Virus record (IMG/VR): IMGVR_UViG_3300045963_000248
Coordinates: 1 to 20,509 of that record
Reading direction: 5' to 3' (one strand)
DNA: 20,509 nt
Origin: a virus
Taxonomy: Duplodnaviria > Heunggongvirae > Uroviricota > Caudoviricetes
Positions 906 through 20,233 of this stretch are shown here, one piece after another. Each line of letters starts with the position of its first letter. Within the stretch, counting starts at the first letter, position 1. A program made the translations under genes and the position numbers. Under the pieces are notes generated by a model that was not told the origin of the DNA, made no database searches, and worked only from the letters and a program-made list of their open reading frames with translations.

Positions 906-1094
906 TTACCTCATTATGTTTTCTATCTGTCTGTTTAGGTCTTCTCGTGCCTCTATTAGCTCTGTAAGCGCCTCGTATTGCGCTTTCATAAAGTTTTTGT
1001 ATGTTTCGTCTGCATAAATTCTAGCTACTGTTTTAGGATTTGCTAGCTCTTCTTCAAATACTTCTTTAATTACTTTTAGTGATTCTAAATCCAT
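906..1094 (-). CDS. hypothetical helical protein (start re-assigned to MDLESL, 62 aa)
   Basis: GGGG RBS before ATG 1094; the upstream extension in the ORF track overlaps 1105..1245. Confidence 0.7.
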   Translation of the reverse strand: MDLESLKVIKEVFEEELANPKTVARIYADETYKNFMKAQYEALTELIEAREDLNRQIENIMR

Positions 1095-1104
1095 ATTTTC
1101 CCCC

Positions 1105-1245
1105 TTATAGTTTACTTTTAAGTTTAATAGCTTCTTCTTTAATTTCTGCTCGGTGTTTAAATAAAGCGTATACAAAGCCAATCCCGTAAGCTACTCCGTA
1201 AAATAACATTATAGCTAGAACTAAGTTTAGAATGCTGTTTAACAT
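1105..1245 (-). CDS. small single-TM membrane protein, 46 aa (MLNSILNLVLAIMLFYGVAYGIGFVYALFKHRAEIKEEAIKLKSKL)
   Basis: Manual translation, not in ORF track; GGAG RBS; fills the gap exactly. Confidence 0.75.
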   Translation of the reverse strand: MLNSILNLVLAIMLFYGVAYGIGFVYALFKHRAEIKEEAIKLKSKL

Positions 1246-1254
1246 AAATAACTC

Positions 1255-1413
1255 CTATTTAATTATTCTACCCTGTTTAAAAATCTCTTTTTGCTGTTTA
1301 AGAGCTTCTTTCAGTTGTTTTCTATTTTTTAAAGTATACTCGATGCACCCAAAAGTAAACCCAATGCCATAAATTACTCCGAATCCAATTACTGCCGTCC
1401 AAAGTGGTTGCAT
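1255..1413 (-). CDS. small single-TM membrane protein, 52 aa (MQPLWTAVIGFGVIYGIGFTFGCIEYTLKNRKQLKEALKQQKEIFKQGRIIK)
   Basis: Manual translation; GGGG RBS; shares GVxYGIGF with 1105..1245. Confidence 0.75.
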   Translation of the reverse strand: MQPLWTAVIGFGVIYGIGFTFGCIEYTLKNRKQLKEALKQQKEIFKQGRIIK

Positions 1414-1422
1414 AAATCCCCC

Positions 1423-1734
1423 TTATAAAGTAGTTTTGTTTAGTCCGTCTATTACATCTTGAACATAACCTAAGTAAGCTAAGTCAATGCCTTCTATAGC
1501 CTCTACAATGTCGCCTAGTCCTAGTTTAGCAGGATAACTATAGCTAGTGCCTTTACCTCGGGAATCTCTGTCAATTAGCTGTTTACGATGTAATAGTATT
1601 AGTCCTCGCTGTACCATGTCATAATTTAAGTTTAACAGTTCACAGCCTTGTAATAGTGTTTTACCGTCCAGTAAGCTAGCGTTACGGTTACTTAGGAATT
1701 CTATAGTCTGTTTAGTTTCTGATTTAAGCTTCAT
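1423..1734 (-). CDS. Rrf2-like winged helix-turn-helix protein
   Basis: MKLKSETK start, RGKGxSY wing and LGDIVEAIEG resemble Rrf2/IscR patterns (RGxxGGY...LGDIIxAIEG); start taken at MKLKS. Confidence 0.6.
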   Translation of the reverse strand: MKLKSETKQTIEFLSNRNASLLDGKTLLQGCELLNLNYDMVQRGLILLHRKQLIDRDSRGKGTSYSYPAKLGLGDIVEAIEGIDLAYLGYVQDVIDGLNKTTL

Positions 1735-1879
1735 TTTTAACCTCAATACTATTAGTAAATAACTCTTGTTTATTCCTAGTTTCTATCCGTCCAGTTTCAT
1801 ATTTAATTACTGTTAAATTTTCTATGATAACTAATACAGTAAACAAATACCCAAACTGTTTATGCCGTCTTTGTTGCAT
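1724..1879 (-). CDS. hypothetical protein, 51 aa (MQQRRHKQFGYLFTVLVIIENLTVIKYETGRIETRNKQELFTNSIEVKNEA)
   Basis: Manual translation; AAGG RBS; fills the gap. Confidence 0.65.
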   Translation of the reverse strand: MQQRRHKQFGYLFTVLVIIENLTVIKYETGRIETRNKQELFTNSIEVKNEA

Positions 1880-1889
1880 GGTATACCTC

Positions 1890-2138
1890 TTAGTAAGTTT
1901 CGCCTTTATAAGACTCTCGTTTATCTATTTCGTGTTCAATGCAACTATCGCAGTACTCAGAGTCGTAATTTTGCTCTTTAAGCGGTTTATCGCATCTCGG
2001 GCAACAATCCCCAAGGTCATCAGTGTTTTGCTCTTCTAATAGCTGTTTATAAGCTATAAGCGCCTCTAAAATACTAGGATAATCTTCTCGGTTTATCTCG
2101 TGCCCGCGTTGTATTGTTTTTATAATATTATTCAGCAT
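1890..2138 (-). CDS. hypothetical protein with C-terminal zinc ribbon (CPRC...CDSC); start re-assigned to MLNNII
   Basis: Two CxxC pairs; ATG 2138 overlaps the end of 2128..2673. Confidence 0.7.
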   Translation of the reverse strand: MLNNIIKTIQRGHEINREDYPSILEALIAYKQLLEEQNTDDLGDCCPRCDKPLKEQNYDSEYCDSCIEHEIDKRESYKGETY

Positions 2139-2673
2139 TTTGTGCCTCTCTATTTTTAATTTCGATATCAAGTAATTCCGGATATTGTAAAATATCACAG
2201 TTTAGTACTAGTTTATCACAAAAATAATCGCCCTTAGCATTTTTACGAGACTCAAAAACTTTAATAGTGAAGTCGTCTAAGTTTAATTCGTAAGCATATT
2301 CGCAAAACAAACCATCATTTTTAAAGCTGCTATTATCCACTGTAGGCAATTCAAAAACTCCGATATTGATTGCCTGTAATTGATCTCTAATATTAGTATC
2401 TCGAGTAATTAAAGGATAATCAAGTTTTTTATATTCGTCACTTTTCGAATTCATTATATTATAAATTGAGTCAATTAATTCCGCGTCGTTCTCCGCTGAT
2501 AACAGTTTAACACGGTTTAAGTTTAGTATTAAGTTCTCGATACTGACTAAATCATTTTCAATGAATTCAGCTAAATCTTTTCCTTGACCGTCTAAATATC
2601 CATCCCATTGATTATATTTTGCTAGTTTTATTTTACCGTCGTGAATAATTGTAAATAAGTTTCTCGTTCCCAT
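2128..2673 (-). CDS. conserved phage hypothetical protein (MGTR...Y-x-Q-W-D-G-Y family)
   Basis: MGTR start, YNQWDGY and CEYAYELNLD motifs recalled from a common phage early-gene family; GAGG RBS. Confidence 0.75.
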   Translation of the reverse strand: MGTRNLFTIIHDGKIKLAKYNQWDGYLDGQGKDLAEFIENDLVSIENLILNLNRVKLLSAENDAELIDSIYNIMNSKSDEYKKLDYPLITRDTNIRDQLQAINIGVFELPTVDNSSFKNDGLFCEYAYELNLDDFTIKVFESRKNAKGDYFCDKLVLNCDILQYPELLDIEIKNREAQNAE

Positions 2674-2681
2674 TGTTTACC

Positions 2682-2949
2682 TCATTGATTTAAATATGAT
2701 TCATAATTTCTAATTTTAGAGCGTTTATTAGTTTGTTTATTTTTAAATTGCACTTGAATATCTAGTTTAATTAAAGCGTTTACGTAAGTACTTAAATCTT
2801 GATCCTCTTCTAAGTATACGAATTCACCGCGCTGATAACTACAACTAGTAATATCGTTTTGAATTCCTAGTTTAATTAGTTCACTTCTTTTTACCTTAGC
2901 CCAACCGTGCCCGGGGGTCTGATAATGCATGTCTTATTATTCGTTTCAT
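2682..2949 (-). CDS. conserved phage hypothetical protein (PGHGW...SY...YLEED family), probable 1-nt frameshift at 2913-2917
   Basis: PGHGW and YLEEDxD motifs; removing one base of the 5-nt run joins ATG 2949 (MKRIIRHALSD) to PGHGW; otherwise 2682..2930 as in the ORF track. Confidence 0.65.
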
Positions 2950-2950
2950 T

Positions 2951-3565
2951 TTAAGCCGCCTTGTTTATAAACGCATTTCCATTATGTTTTTTGCCGCCGT
3001 GATATACCAGTGCTATTTTTTGCTCATATACCGCGTTTAAATCGGACTCAATTGCTTTACTGTAATTGTCGGGGATATCGGCTTCATTTTCCCAAACTTT
3101 TGCATGCGCTTTATTTTCGTCAATTGGATTTATTCCGCCTTGAGATTGTATCATTTTAAAGTTTTCAGGTAAAATCATACCGTCGAACATTTTAAAACTT
3201 TTCGTATAAGCATAAAAAATAACATGAGGTAAGCCTTCCATAACTAAAATCCATTTAGAGATATACTCCCGACTGTAAAAATCCCCCGCAGAATGAATTC
3301 TAATTATGTTTGCTTTACTAGTTATTATTTCTCCGATCATTTCTACACTAAATGAGTCAAGTAATGAAGCCGCTAAATTCGCCTCATGTTTACGCTTTAC
3401 GCCTGAAAAATTATAAGTTCCTTGTCGGGCGTAACAATTCGCAATACAGTCTTTTGCATGCGGGCACGTTATTAGTCCGGTACTTGACTTATATGCAGGG
3501 ATATCAAAATTGAAAATATTATCTTTTTTTAGTTTAGAGTTACTTGTCAATAATTTTAATTTCAT
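2951..3565 (-). CDS. phage gp88-like protein (Cys-rich, Fe-S/radical-SAM-like fold)
   Basis: NSKL, TCPxAxxCxxxCYA, IRIHSAGDF and FYAYTKS motifs. Confidence 0.75.
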   Translation of the reverse strand: MKLKLLTSNSKLKKDNIFNFDIPAYKSSTGLITCPHAKDCIANCYARQGTYNFSGVKRKHEANLAASLLDSFSVEMIGEIITSKANIIRIHSAGDFYSREYISKWILVMEGLPHVIFYAYTKSFKMFDGMILPENFKMIQSQGGINPIDENKAHAKVWENEADIPDNYSKAIESDLNAVYEQKIALVYHGGKKHNGNAFINKAA

Positions 3566-3586
3566 TTTGCTCCCCTTGTTACTTAT

Positions 3587-3615
3587 ATAATATAAAAATT
3601 AAGTAAACTAGTCAA
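3587..3615 (-). promoter_or_regulatory. sigma70-type promoter
   Basis: TTGACT-N17-TATTAT followed by GGGGAG RBS and ATG 3565. Confidence 0.7.
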
Positions 3616-3618
3616 GTA

Positions 3619-3819
3619 TTAATCTTCAATTATTTCATTATTTGATCGGTCAAGCCATCCTTTGGAATAGCCTAGTTCTTCTAAGTCATCTAAAGCACTA
3701 CTTAAACCATCGTAAGCATTATAAATATTGATATCATCTATTTGCTCATTCCAAGTCCCTAAAGTACCGGCTAATTTATAAAGTGTTGATCTCATTCCTA
3801 TAAATTCATACTTTGTCAT
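3619..3819 (-). CDS. hypothetical protein
   Basis: 66 aa, GAGG RBS. Confidence 0.7.
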   Translation of the reverse strand: MTKYEFIGMRSTLYKLAGTLGTWNEQIDDINIYNAYDGLSSALDDLEELGYSKGWLDRSNNEIIED

Positions 3820-3879
3820 AAATACCTCATTTTAAATTAAGTGACTTTTTAATCTTTTTTATTTTCCATAAAATCCCCC

Positions 3880-4140
3880 TTAAAAAATATACTCTTGACC
3901 CTCAAATTTAATACGCTTTAAAGTATTGACGTTTATCGTTCTATAAGCTTCTTTTTGCATGTCAAAAACAATTAAGTGACCTAATTCAGCGGGATTATGA
4001 TTTAGTTCTCCACCCTTTAAGTGTTTAGTTACTCCGAACCTGCAAACCATCTCACGTACTGAACCATCTTTTTTTACGAATTCAACTGAAAAGATTTTGT
4101 TTCCAATTGTTTTTTTAATTTCTGTTATTAAATTTTCCAT
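3880..4140 (-). CDS. phage SH3/Sm-fold protein (WYL_2/DUF2693-like)
   Basis: FSVEFVKKDGSVREMVCR ... VFDMQKEAYRTIN pattern. Confidence 0.65.
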   Translation of the reverse strand: MENLITEIKKTIGNKIFSVEFVKKDGSVREMVCRFGVTKHLKGGELNHNPAELGHLIVFDMQKEAYRTINVNTLKRIKFEGQEYIF

Positions 4141-4157
4141 ATTATCCCCTTAATTCA

Positions 4158-4184
4158 GAGCGTGGGAGATTTTATCCCACGCCC
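4158..4184 (-). other. GC-rich stem-loop after DUF932-like gene (no U tract)
   Basis: GGGCGTGGGA-N7-TCCCACGCTC, 10 bp stem with one G-U pair. Confidence 0.5.
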
Positions 4185-4197
4185 TTATTAGTTTATT

Positions 4198-4932
4198 TTA
4201 AGATGCGACTGCTAAATCCCATAATTCACTGTTAATTCGATTTTGTTCATCAAGTGATTTAATAGCGCGTAGTTTACTTATTTTACCGTTCTCATTTACT
4301 ACATTAAACCCGGTTCTTATAATATTTTCCTGTACTACATTAAAAACGCTGAATGCATCGCTGGCTTGATCTTCAGCACGCTTTACTTCAAACATCGGTA
4401 AAACATTACTTAATTTTTCTGAGTAACCACGAATTTTTAGAGCTTCATTCGTGAATTTTTGCAATTGTTCAGCATTCCATTTTTTAGATTGCAGAGATTC
4501 AATTGATTCAAATACTTTATTTTTTTGGTCTAATATCATTTCAATCGTATCATTTATTTTACCTGCATTCTCTAAAGTATGTCTTAAGGTTACTGGTGTA
4601 ACTATCGATTTACCAATTACTAAGCCATTCGAACATACCATACGCCAAAATCCTAGCTGAAATCTTAAAGCTGTACTACCCTCATGAGAATTAGTAACTA
4701 ATAACTGTAATTGACCGTCTTTAGTCTTCATTCCTGTATTAAAGAGCATGCGATGTTTTTGAAAACCTTGGCGCACCTCTTTATTTTTTCTGATTTTCAT
4801 TTCAACCAATTTATCTAGTTGCAAACCGGATTTTTCTAATTGAGCAACTAAGTTACTTGAAGAAATAAAACCGAATTTTGAAGAACCTAAGTGATTTACT
4901 TGATCTAAACAATTTAATTTTTCAGTATTCAT
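4198..4932 (-). CDS. DUF932/DUF945 family protein
   Basis: LVTNSHEGS...GFWRMVCSNGL signature, H-x-motif (LRHT) and AFSVFNVVQE. Confidence 0.85.
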   Translation of the reverse strand: MNTEKLNCLDQVNHLGSSKFGFISSSNLVAQLEKSGLQLDKLVEMKIRKNKEVRQGFQKHRMLFNTGMKTKDGQLQLLVTNSHEGSTALRFQLGFWRMVCSNGLVIGKSIVTPVTLRHTLENAGKINDTIEMILDQKNKVFESIESLQSKKWNAEQLQKFTNEALKIRGYSEKLSNVLPMFEVKRAEDQASDAFSVFNVVQENIIRTGFNVVNENGKISKLRAIKSLDEQNRINSELWDLAVAS

Positions 4933-4961
4933 TTTTTACTCCCGTGTTAAAATTTTGAGAT

Positions 4962-5232
4962 ATCATATTACTAATTAAGTTAACTAATATTATTTAATAA
5001 CCACGTTCAATTTAATTTCTCGTAAAATGTAATCATATTGATTAAAGGCATTTTGAAAAGAGAAGTGATCGTACTTGATCTCGTGCCCGTTGGTATGAGT
5101 GAATAATACACGGTAGAACGGTTTTTTTGAGTCGGTCGAAGCATATTTTATTTGAAGTGTAACACTCATATAATCCCCCCCCTTTAAAAATTTTAGATCA
5201 TACCTGATATTAAATCATATTACTAATTAAGT
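4962..5232. repeat. 19-bp identical direct repeat ATCATATTACTAATTAAGT (4962-4980 and 5214-5232)
   Basis: Read directly; each copy lies just upstream of a minus-strand gene. Confidence 0.85.
4990..5169 (-). CDS. hypothetical protein, 59 aa (MSVTLQIKYASTDSKKPFYRVLFTHTNGHEIKYDHFSFQNAFNQYDYILREIKLNVVIK)
   Basis: Manual translation; G-run RBS; sigma70 promoter upstream. Confidence 0.75.
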   Translation of the reverse strand: MSVTLQIKYASTDSKKPFYRVLFTHTNGHEIKYDHFSFQNAFNQYDYILREIKLNVVIK

Positions 5233-5235
5233 CAA
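5207..5235 (-). promoter_or_regulatory. sigma70-type promoter
   Basis: TTGACT-N17-TAATAT. Confidence 0.65.
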
Positions 5236-5241
5236 GTAATA

Positions 5242-5484
5242 TTATACTTTTCTTTTCGAACCTATTTTTTTAATATAATAACCGTCTGAAAAAATCGAAT
5301 AACCGGCTTGAAAATTGACAACTAAACCAATCTCAAGGGTATATTTTGGCATCTCATGCTTGAATAATGAAGCTTGTAATATATGCCCATTATTTAATTT
5401 AACACTTATAAGGGTTGAATTCATACCTAATTGAATTGATTGAATTTTACCAAAAGAACGGTGAACTTTATTTGGATTTATCAT
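5242..5484 (-). CDS. hypothetical beta-rich protein
   Basis: 80 aa, GGGAG RBS, sigma54 motif upstream. Confidence 0.75.
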   Translation of the reverse strand: MINPNKVHRSFGKIQSIQLGMNSTLISVKLNNGHILQASLFKHEMPKYTLEIGLVVNFQAGYSIFSDGYYIKKIGSKRKV

Positions 5485-5519
5485 GGTTGACTCCCTTTGT
5501 CGGTTATACTAATATATAA

Positions 5520-5535
5520 AGCAGGAACCGTGCCA
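5520..5535 (-). promoter_or_regulatory. sigma54 (RpoN) -24/-12 promoter
   Basis: TGGCACGGTTCCTGCT, GG-N10-GC spacing, about 36 nt upstream of ATG 5484. Confidence 0.7.
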
Positions 5536-5909
5536 ACTGGAAAGCTATGATATTATTGAATAAACTAATATTGTTGTGACTAAACTATATACGAAAAGCG
5601 TAATTTCCTAGTAATTACGCGCTGTCAGGAAAATATACACTGTCAACGATTAGTACAGGATAACATATTGAAAGATGGTAATATCATTGATTACAATGAC
5701 TTAACTTGAGTGACATCCTTATATGCATGTTAAAAATTGATTTAAAGTAAAAGGGTAAAAAACAATGTCATTCCTCACTTACTTAATTCAGCCGTCAACC
5801 ATTATATTATCAGTGCCAAAATGCCACCACCTTTAAGACTTACGTAAAAGTTACGCATTGAAAACTTCTATACCCGATAACTACTATTATCGGTAATAAC
5901 AATTACATA

Positions 5910-5982
5910 TGCAATTAGCATGCCTTTGCAATAATCATGCCACATTACTTGGCACACAACTTGCAATGCAAGAGCCATGCCT
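5910..5982. promoter_or_regulatory. cluster of four sigma54-type -24/-12 motifs
   Basis: Minus: AGGCATGCTAATTGCA (5910-5925), TGGCATGATTATTGCA (5927-5942), AGGCATGGCTCTTGCA (5967-5982). Plus: TGGCACACAACTTGCA (5950-5965). All GG-N10-GC. Confidence 0.7.
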
Positions 5983-6576
5983 TAAGGTTATCTTAAGGTT
6001 AGCACTCTAAGGGGGGGTAGGTGACTTCGTCGCCGTCAAATAAACTTACACTCTCTATATACCTACTAGGAACTACCTAAGTTGTGCAAGCTCAAACAGC
6101 TATTCCTATGTATCTGATAGTACGTACTCGTATGACACTATAGCATTATGTTGCTAGGAGCCATAGGAAGCCTTTGGAGAGGCTCCGGGGATACTGGAGG
6201 GTAGTTATTCATGAAGGTTCGCAGCAGACAATACAATAGCTATGGGGTGAAGACCTCATTTGGAATTGTATCGATATCATTCCCGGGTTTGTTGTGCCGT
6301 TTCAGATACCAAGTGCTACCATAAGCTTGTTTCAGGATTCCCGAAGGCTTGTTTGAGGTAGTATAGTGTTCAGGTTGTGCATGCTGAACGAAGTAGTGGC
6401 TTGGGTAACGCTCAGATCTTAATCTTCGATGCTGAGTGGTATGTGCATTGCTGCTCGCGGGATGCCGCCGCTTGGCTACCTGTCCCTAATCAATATCTCT
6501 TACCTTAAGTTAGCCGCTAAGCGGGGATATTTGGTCTTTCCTTAATAACGTCCCAAGACGCTCTCTACCTTAAGTT
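5980..6576. other. non-coding, repeat/palindrome-rich region; candidate genome terminus/packaging region
   Basis: No credible ORF; CTTAAG copies near 5981, 5992, 6504 and 6569; G7 at 6011-6017; several palindromes. Confidence 0.4.
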
Positions 6577-6788
6577 GTTAAAAAAGCCTCAGTTGTATGT
6601 ATTAAATTATAGTTAGCTTTCACTAAAGAGAAAAGTTCTTTATCGAAAAGTTCTTTATCAAATAACATTGAATTCCAATTAGTACCTACATATTTGTAAA
6701 AGTACATATTTTTTCGCTTGGAAGGAGCTATGAATACAGTATTCTCGGGATAAATTTCCCCGTTCTCGTCGAAGTAACCAAGTCTCAT
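6570..6788 (-). CDS. N-terminal motif family protein (MRLGYFDENGEI)
   Basis: 72 aa, GGGGG RBS, shared N-terminal motif. Confidence 0.8.
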   Translation of the reverse strand: MRLGYFDENGEIYPENTVFIAPSKRKNMYFYKYVGTNWNSMLFDKELFDKELFSLVKANYNLIHTTEAFLTT

Positions 6789-6993
6789 CTTTATCCCCCG
6801 GGTCGTATACTACCATCCCTCCTGGCAAGTTCATTATAGCATGGGCGCTTTGGATTCCTAATGGAGGAGTATACATTTGCTGAGTCATAGCCCTCCCATA
6901 AGCTCTAGACAAAGCGTCCACCTGCTCCCGGAATGCCCTTAGCGGGTATCCTTTTTCTATTTCCCCATCCTCTGTGAAGTACTCAAGTTTCAT
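6679..6993 (-). CDS. N-terminal motif family protein (MKLEYFTEDGEI); 3' end uncertain
   Basis: AAGGA RBS, motif; 110-nt overlap with 6570..6788 depends on the C5 run at 6795-6799. Confidence 0.75.
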   Translation of the reverse strand: MKLEYFTEDGEIEKGYPLRAFREQVDALSRAYGRAMTQQMYTPPLGIQSAHAIMNLPGGMVVYDPGDKDETWLLRRERGNLSREYCIHSSFQAKKYVLLQICRY

Positions 6994-7156
6994 TTTTGTC
7001 CTTTAGTATTGTTTTTGGAGTTATTAGAGGATTATTAAAGTAAACTCCTGCTTGTATAGCTATCAGTTGATCTATCGTAGCTGAGAATACATTTAAACGT
7101 TTCTCAGTATACTCTTGATCTATTGATCCGTCATCTTTAATGTAAACTAATTTCAT
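6983..7156 (-). CDS. N-terminal motif family protein, 57 aa (MKLVYIKDDGSIDQEYTEKRLNVFSATIDQLIAIQAGVYFNNPLITPKTILKDKNET)
   Basis: Manual translation, absent from ORF track; ATGA overlap with 7153..7416. Confidence 0.8.
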   Translation of the reverse strand: MKLVYIKDDGSIDQEYTEKRLNVFSATIDQLIAIQAGVYFNNPLITPKTILKDKNET

Positions 7157-7416
7157 TTTTGCCCCCGGAACAGCGGCTTCCCGCGAAACTGTTTAGGTAA
7201 GGTAGATTCTTTTTTAGGCTTAGGTGCTTCAGGGGCGGGGGAATCCGGTACGCTCTCGATTCCAAATGTTACTATTTTTTGATATTGAGACGCAGATACT
7301 ACAATAGTATTAGCTTTTTCATGAGGTACTGTATACCTATCTCCCCACTCGATCCAAAACCAACCCTTCCATGTTGGATCGATCTCACCATTGTCTTGAA
7401 AGTAATCTAACTTCAT
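7153..7416 (-). CDS. N-terminal motif family protein (MKLDYFQDNGEI) with Pro/Lys-rich tail
   Basis: 87 aa, GGGAG RBS, motif. Confidence 0.8.
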   Translation of the reverse strand: MKLDYFQDNGEIDPTWKGWFWIEWGDRYTVPHEKANTIVVSASQYQKIVTFGIESVPDSPAPEAPKPKKESTLPKQFRGKPLFRGQK

Positions 7417-7490
7417 AACTCTCCCAGCAGCAGGATGCTGCGTTACAATAGGCTAGCGACAGCGGAGGACTGCCTCGCGCCTGACGATTC

Positions 7491-7811
7491 TTAGAAGAAG
7501 TCTGCGCCTTCTTCAGAATCTAGTTGCTCGTTAATGTCGGTCAGCTTCACTGACCTACCTGAAGACAGTATTATGTTATTGTCTGAGATACTAGATACTG
7601 CATCGTTATCAATGCTAAGTGCTTTAGAAAAATTTTTCTTGAACACTTTATATTTTAGTGGGAGGTAGGTATCATATTGTGTAAGCAGCACTACATACCC
7701 GTCTTGAGATACGTAGGATACAATAAAGGACTCTGAGGTAGCTATATTAAATACTACCTTATACTGTCTTACTAAATACTTTACTAAGATTCTTTTAAAG
7801 AGGTTAAACAT
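7491..7811 (-). CDS. hypothetical protein
   Basis: 106 aa, GGAG RBS. Confidence 0.75.
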   Translation of the reverse strand: MFNLFKRILVKYLVRQYKVVFNIATSESFIVSYVSQDGYVVLLTQYDTYLPLKYKVFKKNFSKALSIDNDAVSSISDNNIILSSGRSVKLTDINEQLDSEEGADFF

Positions 7812-8035
7812 TTTCCACTCCTATTAATTACTCTGACTTTTCTTTTTTGTGTATTAGGTAATTCCCACCATTCTATGAACTGGGTTACAGGCATGTAAGT
7901 TATTCCCGAATCCGGCTGCCATAAAACAATATAAAAACCTCTATATGCTATAAATGACCCTTCAATACTTTTAATTACTACACAGTCGTCAGTAAATATT
8001 TTTCCCGTATCGTGATCAAAGAAATCTAATTGCAT
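7784..8035 (-). CDS. N-terminal motif family protein (MQLDFFDHDTGKI)
   Basis: GAGG RBS, ATG at 8035, motif with 1-aa insertion. Confidence 0.8.
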   Translation of the reverse strand: MQLDFFDHDTGKIFTDDCVVIKSIEGSFIAYRGFYIVLWQPDSGITYMPVTQFIEWWELPNTQKRKVRVINRSGKCLTSLKES

Positions 8036-8044
8036 AATCACCTC

Positions 8045-8079
8045 TTGACAACCTTACCACACTCTGGTATACTTGTCAA
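8045..8079. promoter_or_regulatory. overlapping divergent sigma70 promoters
   Basis: Plus: TTGACA(8045-8050)-N17-TATACT(8068-8073). Minus: TTGACA(8079-8074)-N17-TAAGGT(8056-8051), weaker -10. Confidence 0.7.
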
Positions 8080-8080
8080 C

Positions 8081-8287
8081 ATGGTTTTAGATTATTTTAA
8101 TGACTCCGGCGAAATTGTAAATAGTTTGATAATAGTTAAATCTCCTCTGAAGAACGGTTTACATCAAGTAAGAGTGTTTACAACAATGTCGTCGAGTCCC
8201 GCAGGACTTAGGTATTTTACTAAGGCTGACTTATCTTACTTTTCAAAACGAGGTTACACTATATTATATAGGATATTAAATGATTGA
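8081..8287 (+). CDS. N-terminal motif family protein (MVLDYFNDSGEI), probably leaderless
   Basis: Start re-assigned to ATG 8081; motif; ATG 7 nt after the -10 box. Confidence 0.75.
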   Translation: MVLDYFNDSGEIVNSLIIVKSPLKNGLHQVRVFTTMSSSPAGLRYFTKADLSYFSKRGYTILYRILND

Positions 8288-8573
8288 TAAACAATTCTGC
8301 ATTCACTGTACTGTAAAAAAAGATAAAATCTTTACCCGATACGTAGGTACTAAAAGAATCTACGCTGATGCTTCCGGTGCCGAGTGGTCAGGTTCCCGCT
8401 GTCCAGAATGCTATAAGAAATACAAATTGGAGTACGATGCAAAGCGTCGAAAAAAACTAGGTCATGATGCCATAGGTACTATTAGAATTTGCGAGGAATG
8501 CTCAGCTCAATTTAAAATTGTAAATGGCTCCACAAAATTGTGTTCAAACTGTCGCGGGAATTACAAGGATTAA
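8280..8573 (+). CDS. double zinc-ribbon protein
   Basis: CIHC, CPEC, CEEC and CSNC; basic linker; AGGA RBS, coupled to 8081..8287. Confidence 0.8.
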   Translation: MIDKQFCIHCTVKKDKIFTRYVGTKRIYADASGAEWSGSRCPECYKKYKLEYDAKRRKKLGHDAIGTIRICEECSAQFKIVNGSTKLCSNCRGNYKD

Positions 8574-8828
8574 TTTACCTTTATAGTAAATTTCTGAGAC
8601 AACTATAAATCTAAAAAAACTTGACATCTGCAATATATTTAAATATTCAGTTACAAAATTGTCAGCAGTATCCGAAAACATATCATGTCTTTTTTCTAAG
8701 TTAATTAAAGTAGAAGTTTCCCGAAGCAATCCTATTTTGAAATAGTGCGTATCGTTAGCGTCTTGATAAATTTTAATGTGGTACTTAGCTTTTTTAATAT
8801 CTCCATCGTCATCAAAAATAGTTAGCAT
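8544..8828 (-). CDS. N-terminal motif family protein (MLTIFDDDGDI)
   Basis: 94 aa; FDxDG motif. Confidence 0.75.
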   Translation of the reverse strand: MLTIFDDDGDIKKAKYHIKIYQDANDTHYFKIGLLRETSTLINLEKRHDMFSDTADNFVTEYLNILQMSSFFRFIVVSEIYYKGKLILVIPATV

Positions 8829-9148
8829 TTCATCGCCGTATTTATATAAAAATTTTTGTTTATATTTCTTTTTACCGCTGTGAGAATAAGACTGTCACAT
8901 TTTGCTACTAAAACTGCGTCTCCATTTTGAAGGTATATTAAATCTATTACAGTAAATACTTTTGAGATAATTCTACTGGCTGCAATTTGATTTCCTACCT
9001 TACGATTAGGGGGGTCTTTTGGATGTTTTACTGTGCAGCCAATAGTTAACTCAAAATCTTTTCCGATTTCAAAATTAATTTTACCGTCTAAATCGTCTAC
9101 GTCGTATGCTAAAGTAATTTCGTCTTCGTGAAAGTAAGCTATTTTCAT
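8822..9148 (-). CDS. phage hypothetical protein (weak motif MKIAYFHEDEI; GCTVKHPKD...KVGxxIA pattern)
   Basis: 108 aa, ATGA coupling. Confidence 0.75.
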   Translation of the reverse strand: MKIAYFHEDEITLAYDVDDLDGKINFEIGKDFELTIGCTVKHPKDPPNRKVGNQIAASRIISKVFTVIDLIYLQNGDAVLVAKCDSLILTAVKRNINKNFYINTAMKC

Positions 9149-9390
9149 ATTATAATATCCGCCAAATAATAAGTGTTATACATGCCATTTCCCCGCATTA
9201 AACCTTCCAAATCTTCTCTAATATTTTTTGTAGGTCGTACATTAAAAATTGCAAGCCTGTGCTCGAAAACATCTTCCCATTTTGTAGTCTTTTCTAAATC
9301 CCAAACGTACAGTAAAAATTCAGAACCGTGAGTTCGGTAAGCCCTAATGGCAATTTTAAATTCCCCATCAGGATTAAATATACTTAACAC
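9145..9390 (-). CDS. N-terminal motif family protein (MLSIFNPDGEF)
   Basis: 81 aa, GTG start coupled to the upstream stop; motif. Confidence 0.75.
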   Translation of the reverse strand: MLSIFNPDGEFKIAIRAYRTHGSEFLLYVWDLEKTTKWEDVFEHRLAIFNVRPTKNIREDLEGLMRGNGMYNTYYLADIII

Positions 9391-9575
9391 TATTCTAAAT
9401 CTAACTCTTGTATACTAATTACACTACTTCCGCAGCGGTATACTCCGTTTCCTAGAGAACGTAAATCTTGATTAAATTCTTGAAAAAGTCTCTTCTCGCA
9501 CTTTTCCCGAGTATCTGCTGCGATTACTGCTCGCGCTCCTACCATATCTTCTTCTATTACAATATACACTTTCAT
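9390..9575 (-). CDS. hypothetical protein (start re-assigned to MKVYIV, 61 aa)
   Basis: AGGAG RBS before ATG 9575. Confidence 0.75.
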   Translation of the reverse strand: MKVYIVIEEDMVGARAVIAADTREKCEKRLFQEFNQDLRSLGNGVYRCGSSVISIQELDLE

Positions 9576-9586
9576 TTTTACTCCTA

Positions 9587-9877
9587 CTAATCTGCTTCTA
9601 TATTTCTTTCTTCTGAACTTAAAATATCTGTGTCCCAAAATACTGTAATATGCTCTTCTGCTGGCATACTGCGAAAAGTTACAGTTTCTAAATAAAATCC
9701 GTTTGCGCGTAATTTACTTTTTAATTTTACCGCTGCTTTGCTTGGGTAAAAAAAAGATAAACTTCCGTTGCCGACCCCGGCTGCAATTGTAATTGCTAAA
9801 TCCACATCTGAAAATTTTGATAATCTGTCAGAGTGGGAGTTTTCCATTATCGCTAAGGCATGGTTTTTGGTAATCAT
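9587..9877 (-). CDS. hypothetical protein
   Basis: 96 aa, GGAGG RBS, ATGA coupling. Confidence 0.8.
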   Translation of the reverse strand: MITKNHALAIMENSHSDRLSKFSDVDLAITIAAGVGNGSLSFFYPSKAAVKLKSKLRANGFYLETVTFRSMPAEEHITVFWDTDILSSEERNIEAD

Positions 9878-10164
9878 CGTTTTGCCTCCAATAATTGCAA
9901 TGTGAGATTGTAACAGTGATTACAAATTAAGTCAACAGAAATCTGAGATTTTTTACATTTTGTACATTTACTGAATCTTGGTTTAATAGGTACTGCTAAG
10001 CCTAATTCCTGCATTCTCAGTATATCCTGATCGTCTGCCCAAGATCTGAGAGCATTATATTTTTTGAGCATTGCTCGACGAAATGGCGTGTCTGTAGCAT
10101 CTTCTTTTAGGAGCACTTCAATTTGCAACATAGTAATAATATCTTCGTCACTTAGTATACTCAT
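9874..10164 (-). CDS. hypothetical protein with C-terminal zinc ribbon (CTKC...CNHC)
   Basis: Two CxxC pairs. Confidence 0.75.
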   Translation of the reverse strand: MSILSDEDIITMLQIEVLLKEDATDTPFRRAMLKKYNALRSWADDQDILRMQELGLAVPIKPRFSKCTKCKKSQISVDLICNHCYNLTLQLLEAKR

Positions 10165-10387
10165 CTAGCTCCACTTCATCCCAGTTTATATTTCTGTACT
10201 CAGGTATAAGTTTAAAGTAATCTATAGCTTCCTGTAAAGTTATAGCTTCGGCGCAAGCTACGAGATGGTCCATAACATATAAATCATAAAAGTAAACATC
10301 TCTAATAATAGGACCTATATCCTGAACTATTGCAATTTTTACCGGAATTTTATAGTTACCTTCCGAATCGAAGCAGGGCATCCTCAT
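10148..10387 (-). CDS. N-terminal motif family protein, divergent (MRMPCFDSEGNY)
   Basis: 79 aa; FDxxG motif. Confidence 0.7.
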   Translation of the reverse strand: MRMPCFDSEGNYKIPVKIAIVQDIGPIIRDVYFYDLYVMDHLVACAEAITLQEAIDYFKLIPEYRNINWDEVELDEYTK

Positions 10388-10602
10388 ATTAACTTTAACC
10401 TATTTTCAATTTTTTGCAAGAAAAATCCGCAACAAAAGAAATTAAAATAATACGTGGTAACTAGCCCATTTCCCCGCTGTACAATATTTTTAGTTTTAGC
10501 AAATCGGAATACAGAAAGCAGCTCCCAGCCATTTTTATCTCGTGTAAACGGGGGGAAAACTTGTCCAAATAAAATCCATTTACCAAGTGATATCAACTTC
10601 AA
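10384..10602 (-). CDS. hypothetical protein
   Basis: 72 aa, coupled to both neighbours. Confidence 0.65.
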   Translation of the reverse strand: MKLISLGKWILFGQVFPPFTRDKNGWELLSVFRFAKTKNIVQRGNGLVTTYYFNFFCCGFFLQKIENRLKLI

Positions 10603-10846
10603 TTTTAGTTCCTTTTTTGTATTCTTTGAGTTGTTTTACCGCCATATCTAAACCGGCTACGTAAAAGTCAGCTCCTCTTTTATAATGTAAATACTCCATA
10701 GCTACGAAAGAATGTACTACTTCATTTCCACAAAAAAATCTAAAAATGTATTCATCTGTGTTACTCGATCGATAGCAGTATTCCCTTTTTATTTTATACA
10801 CTAAAGCTTTAAATTCGCCATCTTTATCAAAATAATCAAGCTTCAT
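10580..10846 (-). CDS. N-terminal motif family protein (MKLDYFDKDGEF)
   Basis: 88 aa; near-consensus motif. Confidence 0.8.
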   Translation of the reverse strand: MKLDYFDKDGEFKALVYKIKREYCYRSSNTDEYIFRFFCGNEVVHSFVAMEYLHYKRGADFYVAGLDMAVKQLKEYKKGTKIEVDITW

Positions 10847-11057
10847 CTTTTTCCATTCTCTGATTTAAAATAGCTGCTAAAGCTAATTCAAAAGCTTCCT
10901 GCTCTGTAGCGTCATTTTTTAAAGCTCTGCCAATTCCTATAAGATTTTTATATGTTTCAGTCTCGTCGTCAACTTCAATTTCGAAAGCTCCGTCCACTTC
11001 AGTAATCTTTAAATCGTCAGTGTCTATTCTTGTTTCAATTTCAATGTCGTTTTCCAT
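10836..11057 (-). CDS. small acidic protein
   Basis: 73 aa, 22 D/E versus 7 K/R by manual count; GGAG RBS. Confidence 0.8.
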   Translation of the reverse strand: MENDIEIETRIDTDDLKITEVDGAFEIEVDDETETYKNLIGIGRALKNDATEQEAFELALAAILNQRMEKDEA

Positions 11058-11058
11058 T

Positions 11059-11850
11059 TTAAATCTCCTCTAATTTTATTCCAGCAGCATATAGTCTGTT
11101 AGGATGCTCTGCGTGGTGATAATATATTTTCATTAATTCTTCTACGAAGTTTTCACCAAAAAGTTTACGCATTCTTTTTATGTATAAATTATACATCCAT
11201 TTGTACCCAAATCTATTCCGTAAACAATATAGTATCAGTAAATACAAAATTTTATTTGAAGTGCTTTGTGGAACTTTTTTAAAAGATTCCCAAGCTGACA
11301 TTAAAAAATTAGTAATAAAAAAATTAACTATAAAAAATGGTAAAAATAATAATTCAAAAAATTTATTATAGTTTGCAGTAGCTAAAAAGATACTCCAGTT
11401 TCCAGGATTCATTGGTAAACTAATTCTTGGGGAAACATTATTATAAATAAAAAAATGAAACATCCCGTGCTTTGCGATATCGTTTTTAATAATACTATAG
11501 ATATTAATTCTACTCTCCAAAGTTTTCCCAGGAAAGCATAGTATACCTAAATAATTATCTTGTGAATTTTCATTTCGAGTAGCGTATGGAATATTTTTTG
11601 AATCTCCTGCAGCTCTGTCGAAAACTCCAGACGTATCCGTTTTTAAATTTACAATATCTCGTAAAAATGTTTCGTAAGCGTAAGAGCTGCCTTCTCCCCG
11701 CATATCCAATAACATTAAAAATGTAGAATGAAAAAGTATTCCATTTTCTGAAGTCTGAGCTGTACCTACATTTCTATCAGGTTCCAGTTCGAATCCGCAA
11801 TTTGGATTATGCCAACGTGCGTAAACCTCTGCTAGGCTGGGTAAACTCAT
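11059..11850 (-). CDS. hypothetical protein with hydrophobic segment
   Basis: 263 aa open frame; no family recognised. Confidence 0.8.
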   Translation of the reverse strand: MSLPSLAEVYARWHNPNCGFELEPDRNVGTAQTSENGILFHSTFLMLLDMRGEGSSYAYETFLRDIVNLKTDTSGVFDRAAGDSKNIPYATRNENSQDNYLGILCFPGKTLESRINIYSIIKNDIAKHGMFHFFIYNNVSPRISLPMNPGNWSIFLATANYNKFFELLFLPFFIVNFFITNFLMSAWESFKKVPQSTSNKILYLLILYCLRNRFGYKWMYNLYIKRMRKLFGENFVEELMKIYYHHAEHPNRLYAAGIKLEEI

Positions 11851-12017
11851 AAAAGTAATTTTCCTGTAAAATAGCTAATAGCTAAAACAGCTCCAAAAAC
11901 AATAATAGTTCCCGGTAAACTAAGTTTTTGCGAAAGCTGATAACTTCCGTTTACTAAGCTAAATATAGCTGAAATGGCTAAAAATCCTAGTAAAATAGTT
12001 TTTGTAATTAAAAGCAT
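11847..12017 (-). CDS. small two-TM membrane protein, 56 aa (MLLITKTILLGFLAISAIFSLVNGSYQLSQKLSLPGTIIVFGAVLAISYFTGKLLL)
   Basis: Manual translation; AGGAG RBS; ATGA overlap with 11059..11850. Confidence 0.8.
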   Translation of the reverse strand: MLLITKTILLGFLAISAIFSLVNGSYQLSQKLSLPGTIIVFGAVLAISYFTGKLLL

Positions 12018-12095
12018 AAATTCTCCTATGTGAGGCGGGGATATAAGAATACACTTATGTTTCAGGAGCTACCTGTTTTTCCCCGCAACATTATC

Positions 12096-12299
12096 CTAAC
12101 ACACATATCGCAATAAGTAAAGCCCTTTTGTAGTCTGTAAATTAAAAACATCTCCATTTTTTGTAAAAGATTCTATTAGCAACTGAGAAGATTTATTATC
12201 TTTATAAAAAAAGAACAGCCTTCCCGCCTCCGGGTATGTTTTTGTATTAAAATACTGGATACGATTTTCGTAATCAACTAAAACAATAGTTCGTTCCAT
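12096..12299 (-). CDS. hypothetical protein (start re-assigned to MERTIV)
   Basis: The longer version overlaps the end of dut. Confidence 0.65.
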   Translation of the reverse strand: MERTIVLVDYENRIQYFNTKTYPEAGRLFFFYKDNKSSQLLIESFTKNGDVFNLQTTKGLYLLRYVC

Positions 12300-19566: not shown

Positions 19567-19950
19567 TTACTCCTCTTTAGTTTCTTTTTTAGCTTCCATT
19601 AATTCTATAGTTTTATCTGAAAGTTTGGGTAATACTGATATTAATCTACTTTCAATTTCCTGCTTAACTTCCAAATATACATTTAAGGTGTCTGTTATTT
19701 TGGGAACTAAATAATTCTTTTCGTTTTTTTCCAACATTCCACGGCAAATATTTTCCCCCGCGTCTGCAAGATCCCAAATTGCGGAAGCATCTTTTTTCTT
19801 AATGTTTTTGTAAGGTTTTAGGATACAAGCTTCTAATCGGGAATAATCCTCCAATGCTATTGTATCATTCGCCGCTGTCGATACCGTTCTCATCTCTTCT
19901 AGTACTTCTAATAGAAGACTTTTCGACTGCTCTGATAAAGTTATTCTCAT
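19567..19950 (-). CDS. hypothetical helical protein
   Basis: GGTGG RBS before ATG 19950 (MRITL). Confidence 0.7.
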   Translation of the reverse strand: MRITLSEQSKSLLLEVLEEMRTVSTAANDTIALEDYSRLEACILKPYKNIKKKDASAIWDLADAGENICRGMLEKNEKNYLVPKITDTLNVYLEVKQEIESRLISVLPKLSDKTIELMEAKKETKEE

Positions 19951-20233
19951 CTGTTCCACCTTTATTTCTAATTGCTTTAAATTCTGGACTAACTCTAAAG
20001 GAAATTCCCTGACTGTGTAGTTTATTGAAATAATAAATGCTACCTAAATGGGGAATATCTATAATTTTATTTTGCACCAGTGAATCCGCTAATTCCTTAG
20101 CGAAAACTCTTACAACCGTATTAGCCATTTCGTGAGAAAGCCCACAAGTATCTTTTAAACGCTGTATAGCGTCTTTGAAAGCACGTTCCCCGGCTAACTT
20201 AGGGTAATCTTCAAGTCTATCGTAAACTTTCAT
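19865..20233 (-). CDS. HU/IHF-like DNA-binding protein
   Basis: LSHEMANTVVRVF..L...L.....IDIPHLGSI...SFRVS..FK resembles the HU fold pattern with a shortened arm. Confidence 0.55.
   Translation of the reverse strand: MKVYDRLEDYPKLAGERAFKDAIQRLKDTCGLSHEMANTVVRVFAKELADSLVQNKIIDIPHLGSIYYFNKLHSQGISFRVSPEFKAIRNKGGTDENNFIRAVEKSSIRSTRRDENGIDSGE

Follow-up and report, generated by a model that had tools for sequence, protein, structure and literature searches.

A conserved array of sigma-54-type boxes, including a face-to-face pair, in the non-coding gap of a phage genome

The locus and its five boxes

The window, that is, the whole stretch of DNA analysed here (20,509 nucleotides), corresponds to the first 20.5 kb of an 84.5-kb viral record that is estimated to be complete, and it has a GC content of 35.6%. 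Nearly all of the window genes are on the minus strand. At the scale of the whole genome, a leftward arm (61-84.5 kb plus 0-21 kb) is opposed by a rightward structural arm (21-61 kb), and the leftward arm contains genes for RNR, dUTPase, AAA ATPases, DUF932, GP88, a nuclease, a primase-helicase, and DNA polymerase A. GGAG-type ribosome-binding sites are frequent, so that the host of the phage uses Shine-Dalgarno sites. The nearest cultured relative of the terminase belongs to a Silvanigrella phage (26.5% identity), and terminase identity to any cultured phage is at most 27% for this phage and at most 42% for the marine group discussed below. BLAST searches against cultured phages with the gap region and with one marine array as queries gave no match.

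All the boxes described here lie in one gap. As the gene blocks on both sides of this gap run leftward, it is not a divergent junction. The features are as follows:

5242-5484, minus strand: first gene after the boxes, an 80-aa orphan with a GGGAG ribosome-binding site
5485-6570, no strand: non-coding gap of 1.1 kb, the only large one in the window, holding all five boxes
5520-5535, minus strand: box E, isolated sigma-54-type box, TGGCACGGTTCCTGCT, predicted start ~5509
5598-5620, minus strand: terminator-like hairpin between the array and box E, with an 8-bp stem followed by TTTT
5875-5894, minus strand: inverted repeat CCGATAA...TTATCGG, at about +5 to +25 of the predicted box D transcript
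5910-5925, minus strand: box D, sigma-54-type, AGGCATGCTAATTGCA, predicted start ~5899, in tandem with box C at 1 bp
5927-5942, minus strand: box C, sigma-54-type with full consensus, TGGCATGATTATTGCA, predicted start ~5916
5950-5965, plus strand: box B, sigma-54-type with full consensus, TGGCACACAACTTGCA, predicted start ~5976, left half of the mirror pair
5967-5982, minus strand: box A, sigma-54-type, AGGCATGGCTCTTGCA, predicted start ~5956, right half of the mirror pair
6011-6068, plus strand: G7 run followed by the inverted repeat GTAGGT...ACCTAC, a conserved segment adjacent to the array

In all five boxes GG (-24) and GC (-12) are separated by exactly 10 nt, and boxes B and C carry the full TGGCAY-N5-TTGCA sequence. 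The four boxes at 5910-5982 form an array with intervals of 1, 7, and 1 bp in which three boxes point leftward and one rightward. In fact, these four GG-N10-GC motifs, their orientations, and the fifth motif at 5535-5520 were found just where an earlier note on this DNA, made from the letters alone, had placed them. The GGCAY-N6-TGCW pattern has exactly five matches on the two strands of the 20.5-kb window, against an expected 0.21, and all of them fall in the 5485-6570 gap; none of 100 shuffles reached five matches, the largest count being 2. The strict TGGCAY-N5-TTGCW pattern matches just 5927-5942 and 5950-5965, and its reversed control gave none. In the scan of the whole 84.5-kb genome that the earlier note had proposed, seven of the nine best sigma-54-like 16-mers were located within 5520-6452. 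Furthermore, the five boxes have the GG and GC blocks and their neighbours in common while their spacers differ, which is the pattern of independent protein-binding sites and not that of a duplicated repeat.

Boxes B and A constitute a face-to-face, interdigitated mirror pair (5950-5982) whose -12 elements are 1 bp apart. Because the predicted start of box B (~5976) lies to the right of that of box A (~5956), the two transcripts would diverge without overlapping or colliding, and as both promoters share the same DNA only one polymerase could occupy the pair at a time. The possibility that the pair is a hairpin was rejected, since the spacer arms are not complementary. The predicted transcript of box B would carry the G7 run at about +36 to +42. 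Immediately to the right of box A, a direct repeat (CTTAAGGTT) occurs twice at 5980-6000, each copy with the palindrome CTTAAG; this repeat is missing from the relatives at the same position.

Box E lies at an ordinary promoter distance: its predicted start precedes the ATG of the 80-aa gene (at 5484) by ~25 nt and lies upstream of the GGGAG site, in agreement with the proposal that it is placed to drive 5242-5484. Boxes A, C, and D are 415-470 nt away from this gene with the terminator-like hairpin in between, and box B faces no gene. The PHROG search assigned no family to the 80-aa protein or to the array-adjacent proteins. The genes to the left had been called early genes, a label that we consider uncertain because the leftward block opens with the 80-aa orphan, DUF932, and GP88, to be followed by the nuclease and replication genes.

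Other elements of the gap flank the array. Leftward transcription from boxes A, C, or D would yield an untranslated RNA of ~300 nt with a 5' hairpin, which would either end at the terminator-like 3' hairpin at 5620-5598 or read through it. No minus-strand ORF of at least 20 aa was found between ~5620 and 5840, the sequence of this predicted RNA is conserved only over its first 30-40 nt, and the putative RNAs folded no better than shuffles (z = -1.2 for the leftward and z = -0.7 for the rightward one). The right part of the gap (6011-6611) is richer in GC (~45%) than the rest, is homologous to the related locus L008 with 61% identity, and has no credible ORF over ~600 nt; beyond its first 60-80 nt it is largely not conserved in the related loci L007 or L010. 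No Rfam family was found for the whole window at gathering thresholds or for the gap at E values up to 1. Judged from its sequence, 6011-6611 would either encode an RNA outside the known families or act at the DNA level, for example as a genome end or an origin. GC skew only tracks gene orientation, has no switch at the array, and gives no origin signal there.

Conservation in relatives and spread among viruses

Relatives were found through a protein database, in which the neighbouring DUF932 protein has hundreds of homologues on contigs of 50-84 kb, while a single-protein search of viral contigs with DUF932 gave no match. The conservation test set consisted of eight related loci with DNA. In all eight, the DUF932 block is preceded by a gap of about 0.7-1.6 kb, and in seven of them sigma-54-type boxes are present in this orthologous gap, the exception (L013) being the most distant of the eight. 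Hence, the conservation on which the earlier note had made its proposal depend was in fact observed. The alignment revealed a conserved order, in which a C run is followed by a face-to-face pair of one forward and one reverse box and then by more boxes, while spacer sequence, box number, and box orientation all vary between relatives. As the boxes persist through these changes, it is the motif that is conserved and not the DNA sequence. According to the alignment the position of box A is conserved; in both L007 and L008, box C has a conserved counterpart that is a forward box, and the position of box D is occupied by a box of opposite orientation. No equivalent of box E was found before the first gene in L007 or L008.

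The conservation extends to elements close to the boxes. The segment with the G7 run and GTAGGT...ACCTAC is kept beside the array in L007 and L010, and a G run also lies beside the arrays of the marine relatives, as is the case of GGGGGAGGGGG in L016. In relatives, some boxes adjoin a G run within the stretch that would have to melt. The CCGATAA...TTATCGG repeat, a possible 5' hairpin or operator, is conserved in part in L007 and L008. One of the relatives (L011) contains identical 17-nt sigma-54 boxes (TTGGCACAGGACTTGCA) at 4213-4229 on the plus strand and 5076-5092 on the minus strand, in inverted orientation, which flank a segment of 850 bp, where a 73-aa ORF without a gene call begins at 4509 and is provided with a ribosome-binding site; these boxes could be convergent promoters or delimit an invertible segment.

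The face-to-face pair was searched for with the pattern TGGCAY-N5-TTGCA-N(1-5)-TGCAA-N5-RTGCCA, which was found in at least 120 viral contig stretches with GC contents from 32 to 63%, often as 2-4 tandem units 42-57 bp apart and with gaps of 1-5 bp between the two halves. The same pattern occurs in only eight stretches in 596 Gb of prokaryote genomes, one of which (L139) agrees with the viral locus L045 in length and match position. In the viral collection, spacers of N4 or N6 instead of N5 gave no mirror pair at all, back-to-back pairs up to 5 bp apart were absent, and tandem same-direction pairs numbered 20. Judged by these counts, the face-to-face pair is a virus-specific element, one that bacteria almost never build in spite of their wide use of sigma-54. 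The earlier note had overlooked the pair B/A, its virus-specific spread over more than 100 contigs, and the hairpin at 5620-5598.

Mirror pairs are located at divergent gene junctions in 35 of 59 cases, compared with a baseline of 15% (ORFs of at least 120 aa), and the G runs beside the viral arrays are mostly oriented outward in the transcript sense (47 outward and 20 inward). TerL, an M15 peptidase, GP88, Thy1, and a T7-type portal are common to roughly half of the loci with arrays, in which the array sits between a leftward DNA-metabolism arm and a rightward packaging arm. In the marine relatives, 200-400 bp separate the arrays from the genes on either side, and a strong sigma-70-type promoter is placed nearer to the first gene than the array is. 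The M15 peptidase gene of our phage (20234-20509, minus strand) is on the leftward strand, whereas in the marine relatives it is rightward, on the packaging side of the array, and for this reason the 14-kb block (6570-20638) that separates the array from the packaging genes may be the product of an inversion or insertion.

Complete viral genomes of 36-44 kb contain 3-14 boxes, nearly all of them in a single short control region, and none with the reversed control. In one of the complete viral records (G012, 36.6 kb), box arrays with box sequences in common occur at both ends (8-174 and 36007-36201), which indicates that the array spans a circular junction or a terminal repeat. Isolated strict boxes are also abundant: 68 were counted in 1.2 Mb, where about one was expected, 48 of them being intergenic, and about 21 of the 68 have a co-oriented gene start 18-175 nt past the predicted transcription start, like box E. 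An 86.9-kb viral contig (L061) has ten isolated strict boxes over 1087-12233, several of them 29-168 nt upstream of genes, and to judge from this arrangement it looks like a multi-operon sigma-54 regulon in another phage.

Which factor could read the boxes

The boxes themselves point to sigma-54. A profile was built from 690 distinct boxes, taken from the window and the fetched loci, for the soft positions that the search pattern does not fix. It has T in 88% of the boxes at -26 and a pyrimidine in 72% at -27, G in 61% and A in 31% at -20, a purine in 74% at -19, and T in 88% at -15. Thus, even the unconstrained positions follow the sigma-54 consensus YTGGCACGr-N3-TTGCW, as read from the sequence profile, and experimentally supported Salmonella sigma-54 sites have the same preference for G or A after TGGCAY (PMC3844500). 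This agreement at the soft positions, together with the zero tolerance in spacing and the constancy across divergent phages, points to the universally conserved sigma-54 more than to co-evolving phage proteins.

The phage genome appears to provide neither sigma-54 nor its activator. The search for RpoN or bEBP genes that the earlier note had suggested gave no match to the DNA-binding and core-binding domains of RpoN (PF04552 and PF04963) or to the bEBP ATPase domain PF00158 in the phage genome, and GAFTGA, which had been reported missing from both AAA proteins of the window, is absent from every reading frame of the genome. These two AAA proteins were considered as activators and rejected, as they match classic AAA and MoxR-like families and not PF00158. 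Of 35 other viral records with arrays, 33 likewise lack a bEBP domain, and the surroundings of the array gave neither a recognisable upstream activator site nor an IHF consensus. Since this phage has no detectable sigma-54 gene, the most plausible reader would be the holoenzyme of the host.

With evenly balanced confidence, we propose from these sequence data that the array is read by the host sigma-54 holoenzyme and acts as an activator-dependent, partly bidirectional promoter hub. The 73-bp segment would offer four high-affinity boxes to the host sigma-54 (RpoN) RNA polymerase holoenzyme. At the pair B/A, a compact symmetric bidirectional sigma-54 promoter, one polymerase would sit in either orientation and give rise to divergent, non-overlapping transcripts starting ~20 bp apart; the rightward one would span the conserved G-run segment, and boxes C and D would provide two additional leftward start points. 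Box E would drive the 80-aa gene and the DUF932-GP88-nuclease-replication block as a sigma-54 promoter of the ordinary kind. The sigma-54 closed complex does not open unless an AAA+ activator is present, and the phage encodes none, so that either an enhancer-binding protein of the host or a phage factor that has escaped recognition would be required for firing. From the motif, its statistics, its conservation, its design rules, and the absence of detectable phage RpoN and bEBP genes, all of them observed, we infer that the holoenzyme binds, where transcription starts, and that an activator is required.

Several lines of evidence argue for this proposal. Five boxes, against 0.21 predicted by chance for the entire window, are concentrated in one gap, seven of the nine best matches of the genome lie there, and seven of eight relatives keep boxes in spite of the turnover in spacers, counts, and orientations. 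The spacing is exact, as at least 120 N5 pairs contrast with no N4 or N6 pairs, and a motif unchanged over GC contents of 32-63% fits a universal host factor better than co-evolving phage proteins. A promoter function, in particular, is favoured by the preference of mirror pairs for divergent junctions (35 of 59, against 15%), by isolated boxes at promoter distance from co-oriented genes, and by the outward bias of the G run. However, other observations count against it: no activator gene, activator site, or IHF site was found; the boxes, 1-7 bp apart, are too near for several holoenzymes to be accommodated at once; the rightward box B has no gene to face; and in relatives some boxes adjoin a G run where the DNA would have to melt. 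The marine arrays, moreover, are 200-400 bp away from the genes, to which a strong sigma-70-type promoter is closer, the presence of a single array in the 36-44 kb genomes, with no boxes elsewhere, would be equally expected of an origin, a site for packaging, or one for docking, and bacteria, which use sigma-54 widely, almost never build mirror pairs.

Three other explanations were considered. A chance cluster or a functionless by-product of local duplication, to which the adjacency and similarity of boxes C and D might point, is extremely improbable, and we regard it as effectively refuted by the shuffles, by the differing spacers, by the conservation of the motif in seven of eight relatives despite sequence turnover, and by hundreds of independent viral instances. 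A somewhat unlikely alternative is that sigma-54 or its holoenzyme is bound but no RNA is made, so that the array parks or soaks up the enzyme. It could be a decoy that shuts off the host sigma-54 stress regulons after replication of the phage DNA, a docking site for something else, or a roadblock or insulator that sets the replication block apart from the leftward block upstream of it (20.6 to 6.6 kb). The long life of sigma-54 closed complexes, and their silence as long as no activator is present (PMC3844500), suit such a role, as do near-consensus boxes packed so closely that they cannot all fire, an activator that is encoded neither here nor in 33 of the 35 other records, small complete genomes with one array of 8-14 boxes and none elsewhere, flanking blocks of the same direction with box B facing no gene, and face-to-face pairs that are specific to viruses. 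It explains less well why isolated boxes of related contigs stand at promoter distance before co-oriented genes, as box E does, or why pairs prefer divergent junctions; a decoy requires neither a fixed place beside a G run nor an outward bias of that run, and 4-5 sites per genome would be a weak sponge unless the copy number is high. The sigma-54 interpretation of the earlier note holds in part: the motifs are real sigma-54-type boxes, far above chance, and may serve either of the functions that it had offered for them, a promoter with a host activator or a decoy, whereas nothing in our analysis supports its further suggestion of an RNA polymerase anchor during DNA entry.

It is unlikely, in our opinion, that the boxes are instead read by a lineage-specific DNA-binding protein encoded by the phage, such as a small terminase (at a pac site), a replication initiator (at origin iterons), or a repressor, and only resemble sigma-54 sites. 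This explanation would account for the confinement of the element to viruses, for the broad lineage formed by the half or so of array loci that share TerL, M15 peptidase, GP88, and Thy1, where the array is directly upstream of packaging genes, for the single array per small genome, and for its location in an extensive non-coding region where a G run and inverted repeats also occur. On the other hand, the specificity is that of sigma-54 even at weakly conserved positions and with zero spacing tolerance, and the motif is constant over GC contents of 32-63% and over terminases less than 40% identical, distances over which pac sites, origins, and operators normally drift. The variation of the pair gap (1-5 bp) and of the orientations would be intolerable for a dimeric binder, the array of this phage is 15 kb away from the terminase genes, there is no GC skew switch at the array, and no RpoN-like domain is encoded.

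For this lineage and the other viruses, the promoter-hub proposal can be extended to a more speculative idea, which we consider doubtful: the mirrored module would be a master switch of the control region, where host sigma-54 polymerase, trapped in a silent closed complex at the symmetric double box, is released bidirectionally by a trigger other than a canonical enhancer-binding protein. The trigger would be an unrecognised phage factor or a signal of the host state, and the transcript that runs outward through the G run may form an R-loop, prime synthesis, or insulate. If true, this would represent a new mode of phage takeover of an alternative host polymerase.

Relation to known promoters and significance

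Among the bacterial routes of transcription, only that of sigma-54 stays strictly off as long as no ATPase activator has acted. The boxes described here share with bacterial sigma-54 promoters (such as glnAp2, pspA, and the Salmonella set; PMC3844500) the TGGCAC-N5-TTGCW sequence, the exact spacing, and the soft preferences at -27, -26, -20, -19, and -15, and the geometry of box E in front of its gene is also normal for them. They differ in belonging to a virulent-type phage that has no detectable sigma-54 or bEBP and no recognisable upstream activator site, and in forming groups of at least four nearly touching boxes in both orientations, with a face-to-face pairing that is almost absent from the 596 Gb of prokaryote genomes. 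Within genes of Salmonella, E. coli, and Vibrio, sigma-54 sites have been described that are not placed at the start of an operon, and roles in interference, antisense transcription, or other regulation have been proposed for them (PMC3844500). The array resembles those sites in this respect, but the intragenic ones are single, weaker, and scattered, in contrast to a conserved intergenic array of consensus strength.

The mirror pair also recalls the symmetric bidirectional sigma-70 promoters, to which RNA polymerase binds in two orientations to produce divergent transcripts (Warman et al., 10.1101/2020.01.31.928960; PMC12825309). Pseudo-symmetry, mutually exclusive binding, and enrichment at divergent junctions are common to both, although the sigma-70 promoters have overlapping -10 elements and the pair is made up of two entire sigma-54 boxes that meet through their -12 elements. 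Our literature searches found no description of a mirrored or symmetric sigma-54 layout or of phage sigma-54 promoter arrays, in line with the remark in the earlier note that the use of sigma-54 by phages is seldom described; they gave no published account of phage sigma-54 promoters. Several near-consensus promoters for the host polymerase are likewise stacked at the head of a transcription unit in lytic phages, as is the case of the strong early promoters T7 A1/A2/A3 and those of T5. These, however, are of the sigma-70 type, about 100 bp apart, and fire without an activator, whereas the array has sigma-54-type boxes at intervals of 1-7 bp, some of them opposed. As far as sequence comparison can tell, these phages probably engage the host sigma-54 enzyme in a way that is absent from the literature we found.

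If host sigma-54 does read the arrays, a widespread group of uncultured phages would either tie a key gene block to this switch or block the switch, and with the face-to-face double box they would employ a regulatory layout that is almost absent from bacteria. The mirrored array could help to predict hosts, which should be rpoN-positive, and could supply a compact, bidirectional, and tightly gated promoter part. Reading by sigma-54 is, moreover, testable on a short synthetic fragment and without the host of the phage.

Finally, IHF is the classic bending cofactor of sigma-54 promoters, and the window encodes a protein of 122 aa (19865-20233, minus strand) that weakly resembles the HU/IHF type (PF00216, E = 0.003, a score short of the curated cut-off). 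As IHF bends DNA at such promoters, this HU-like phage protein may be relevant to the sigma-54 boxes.
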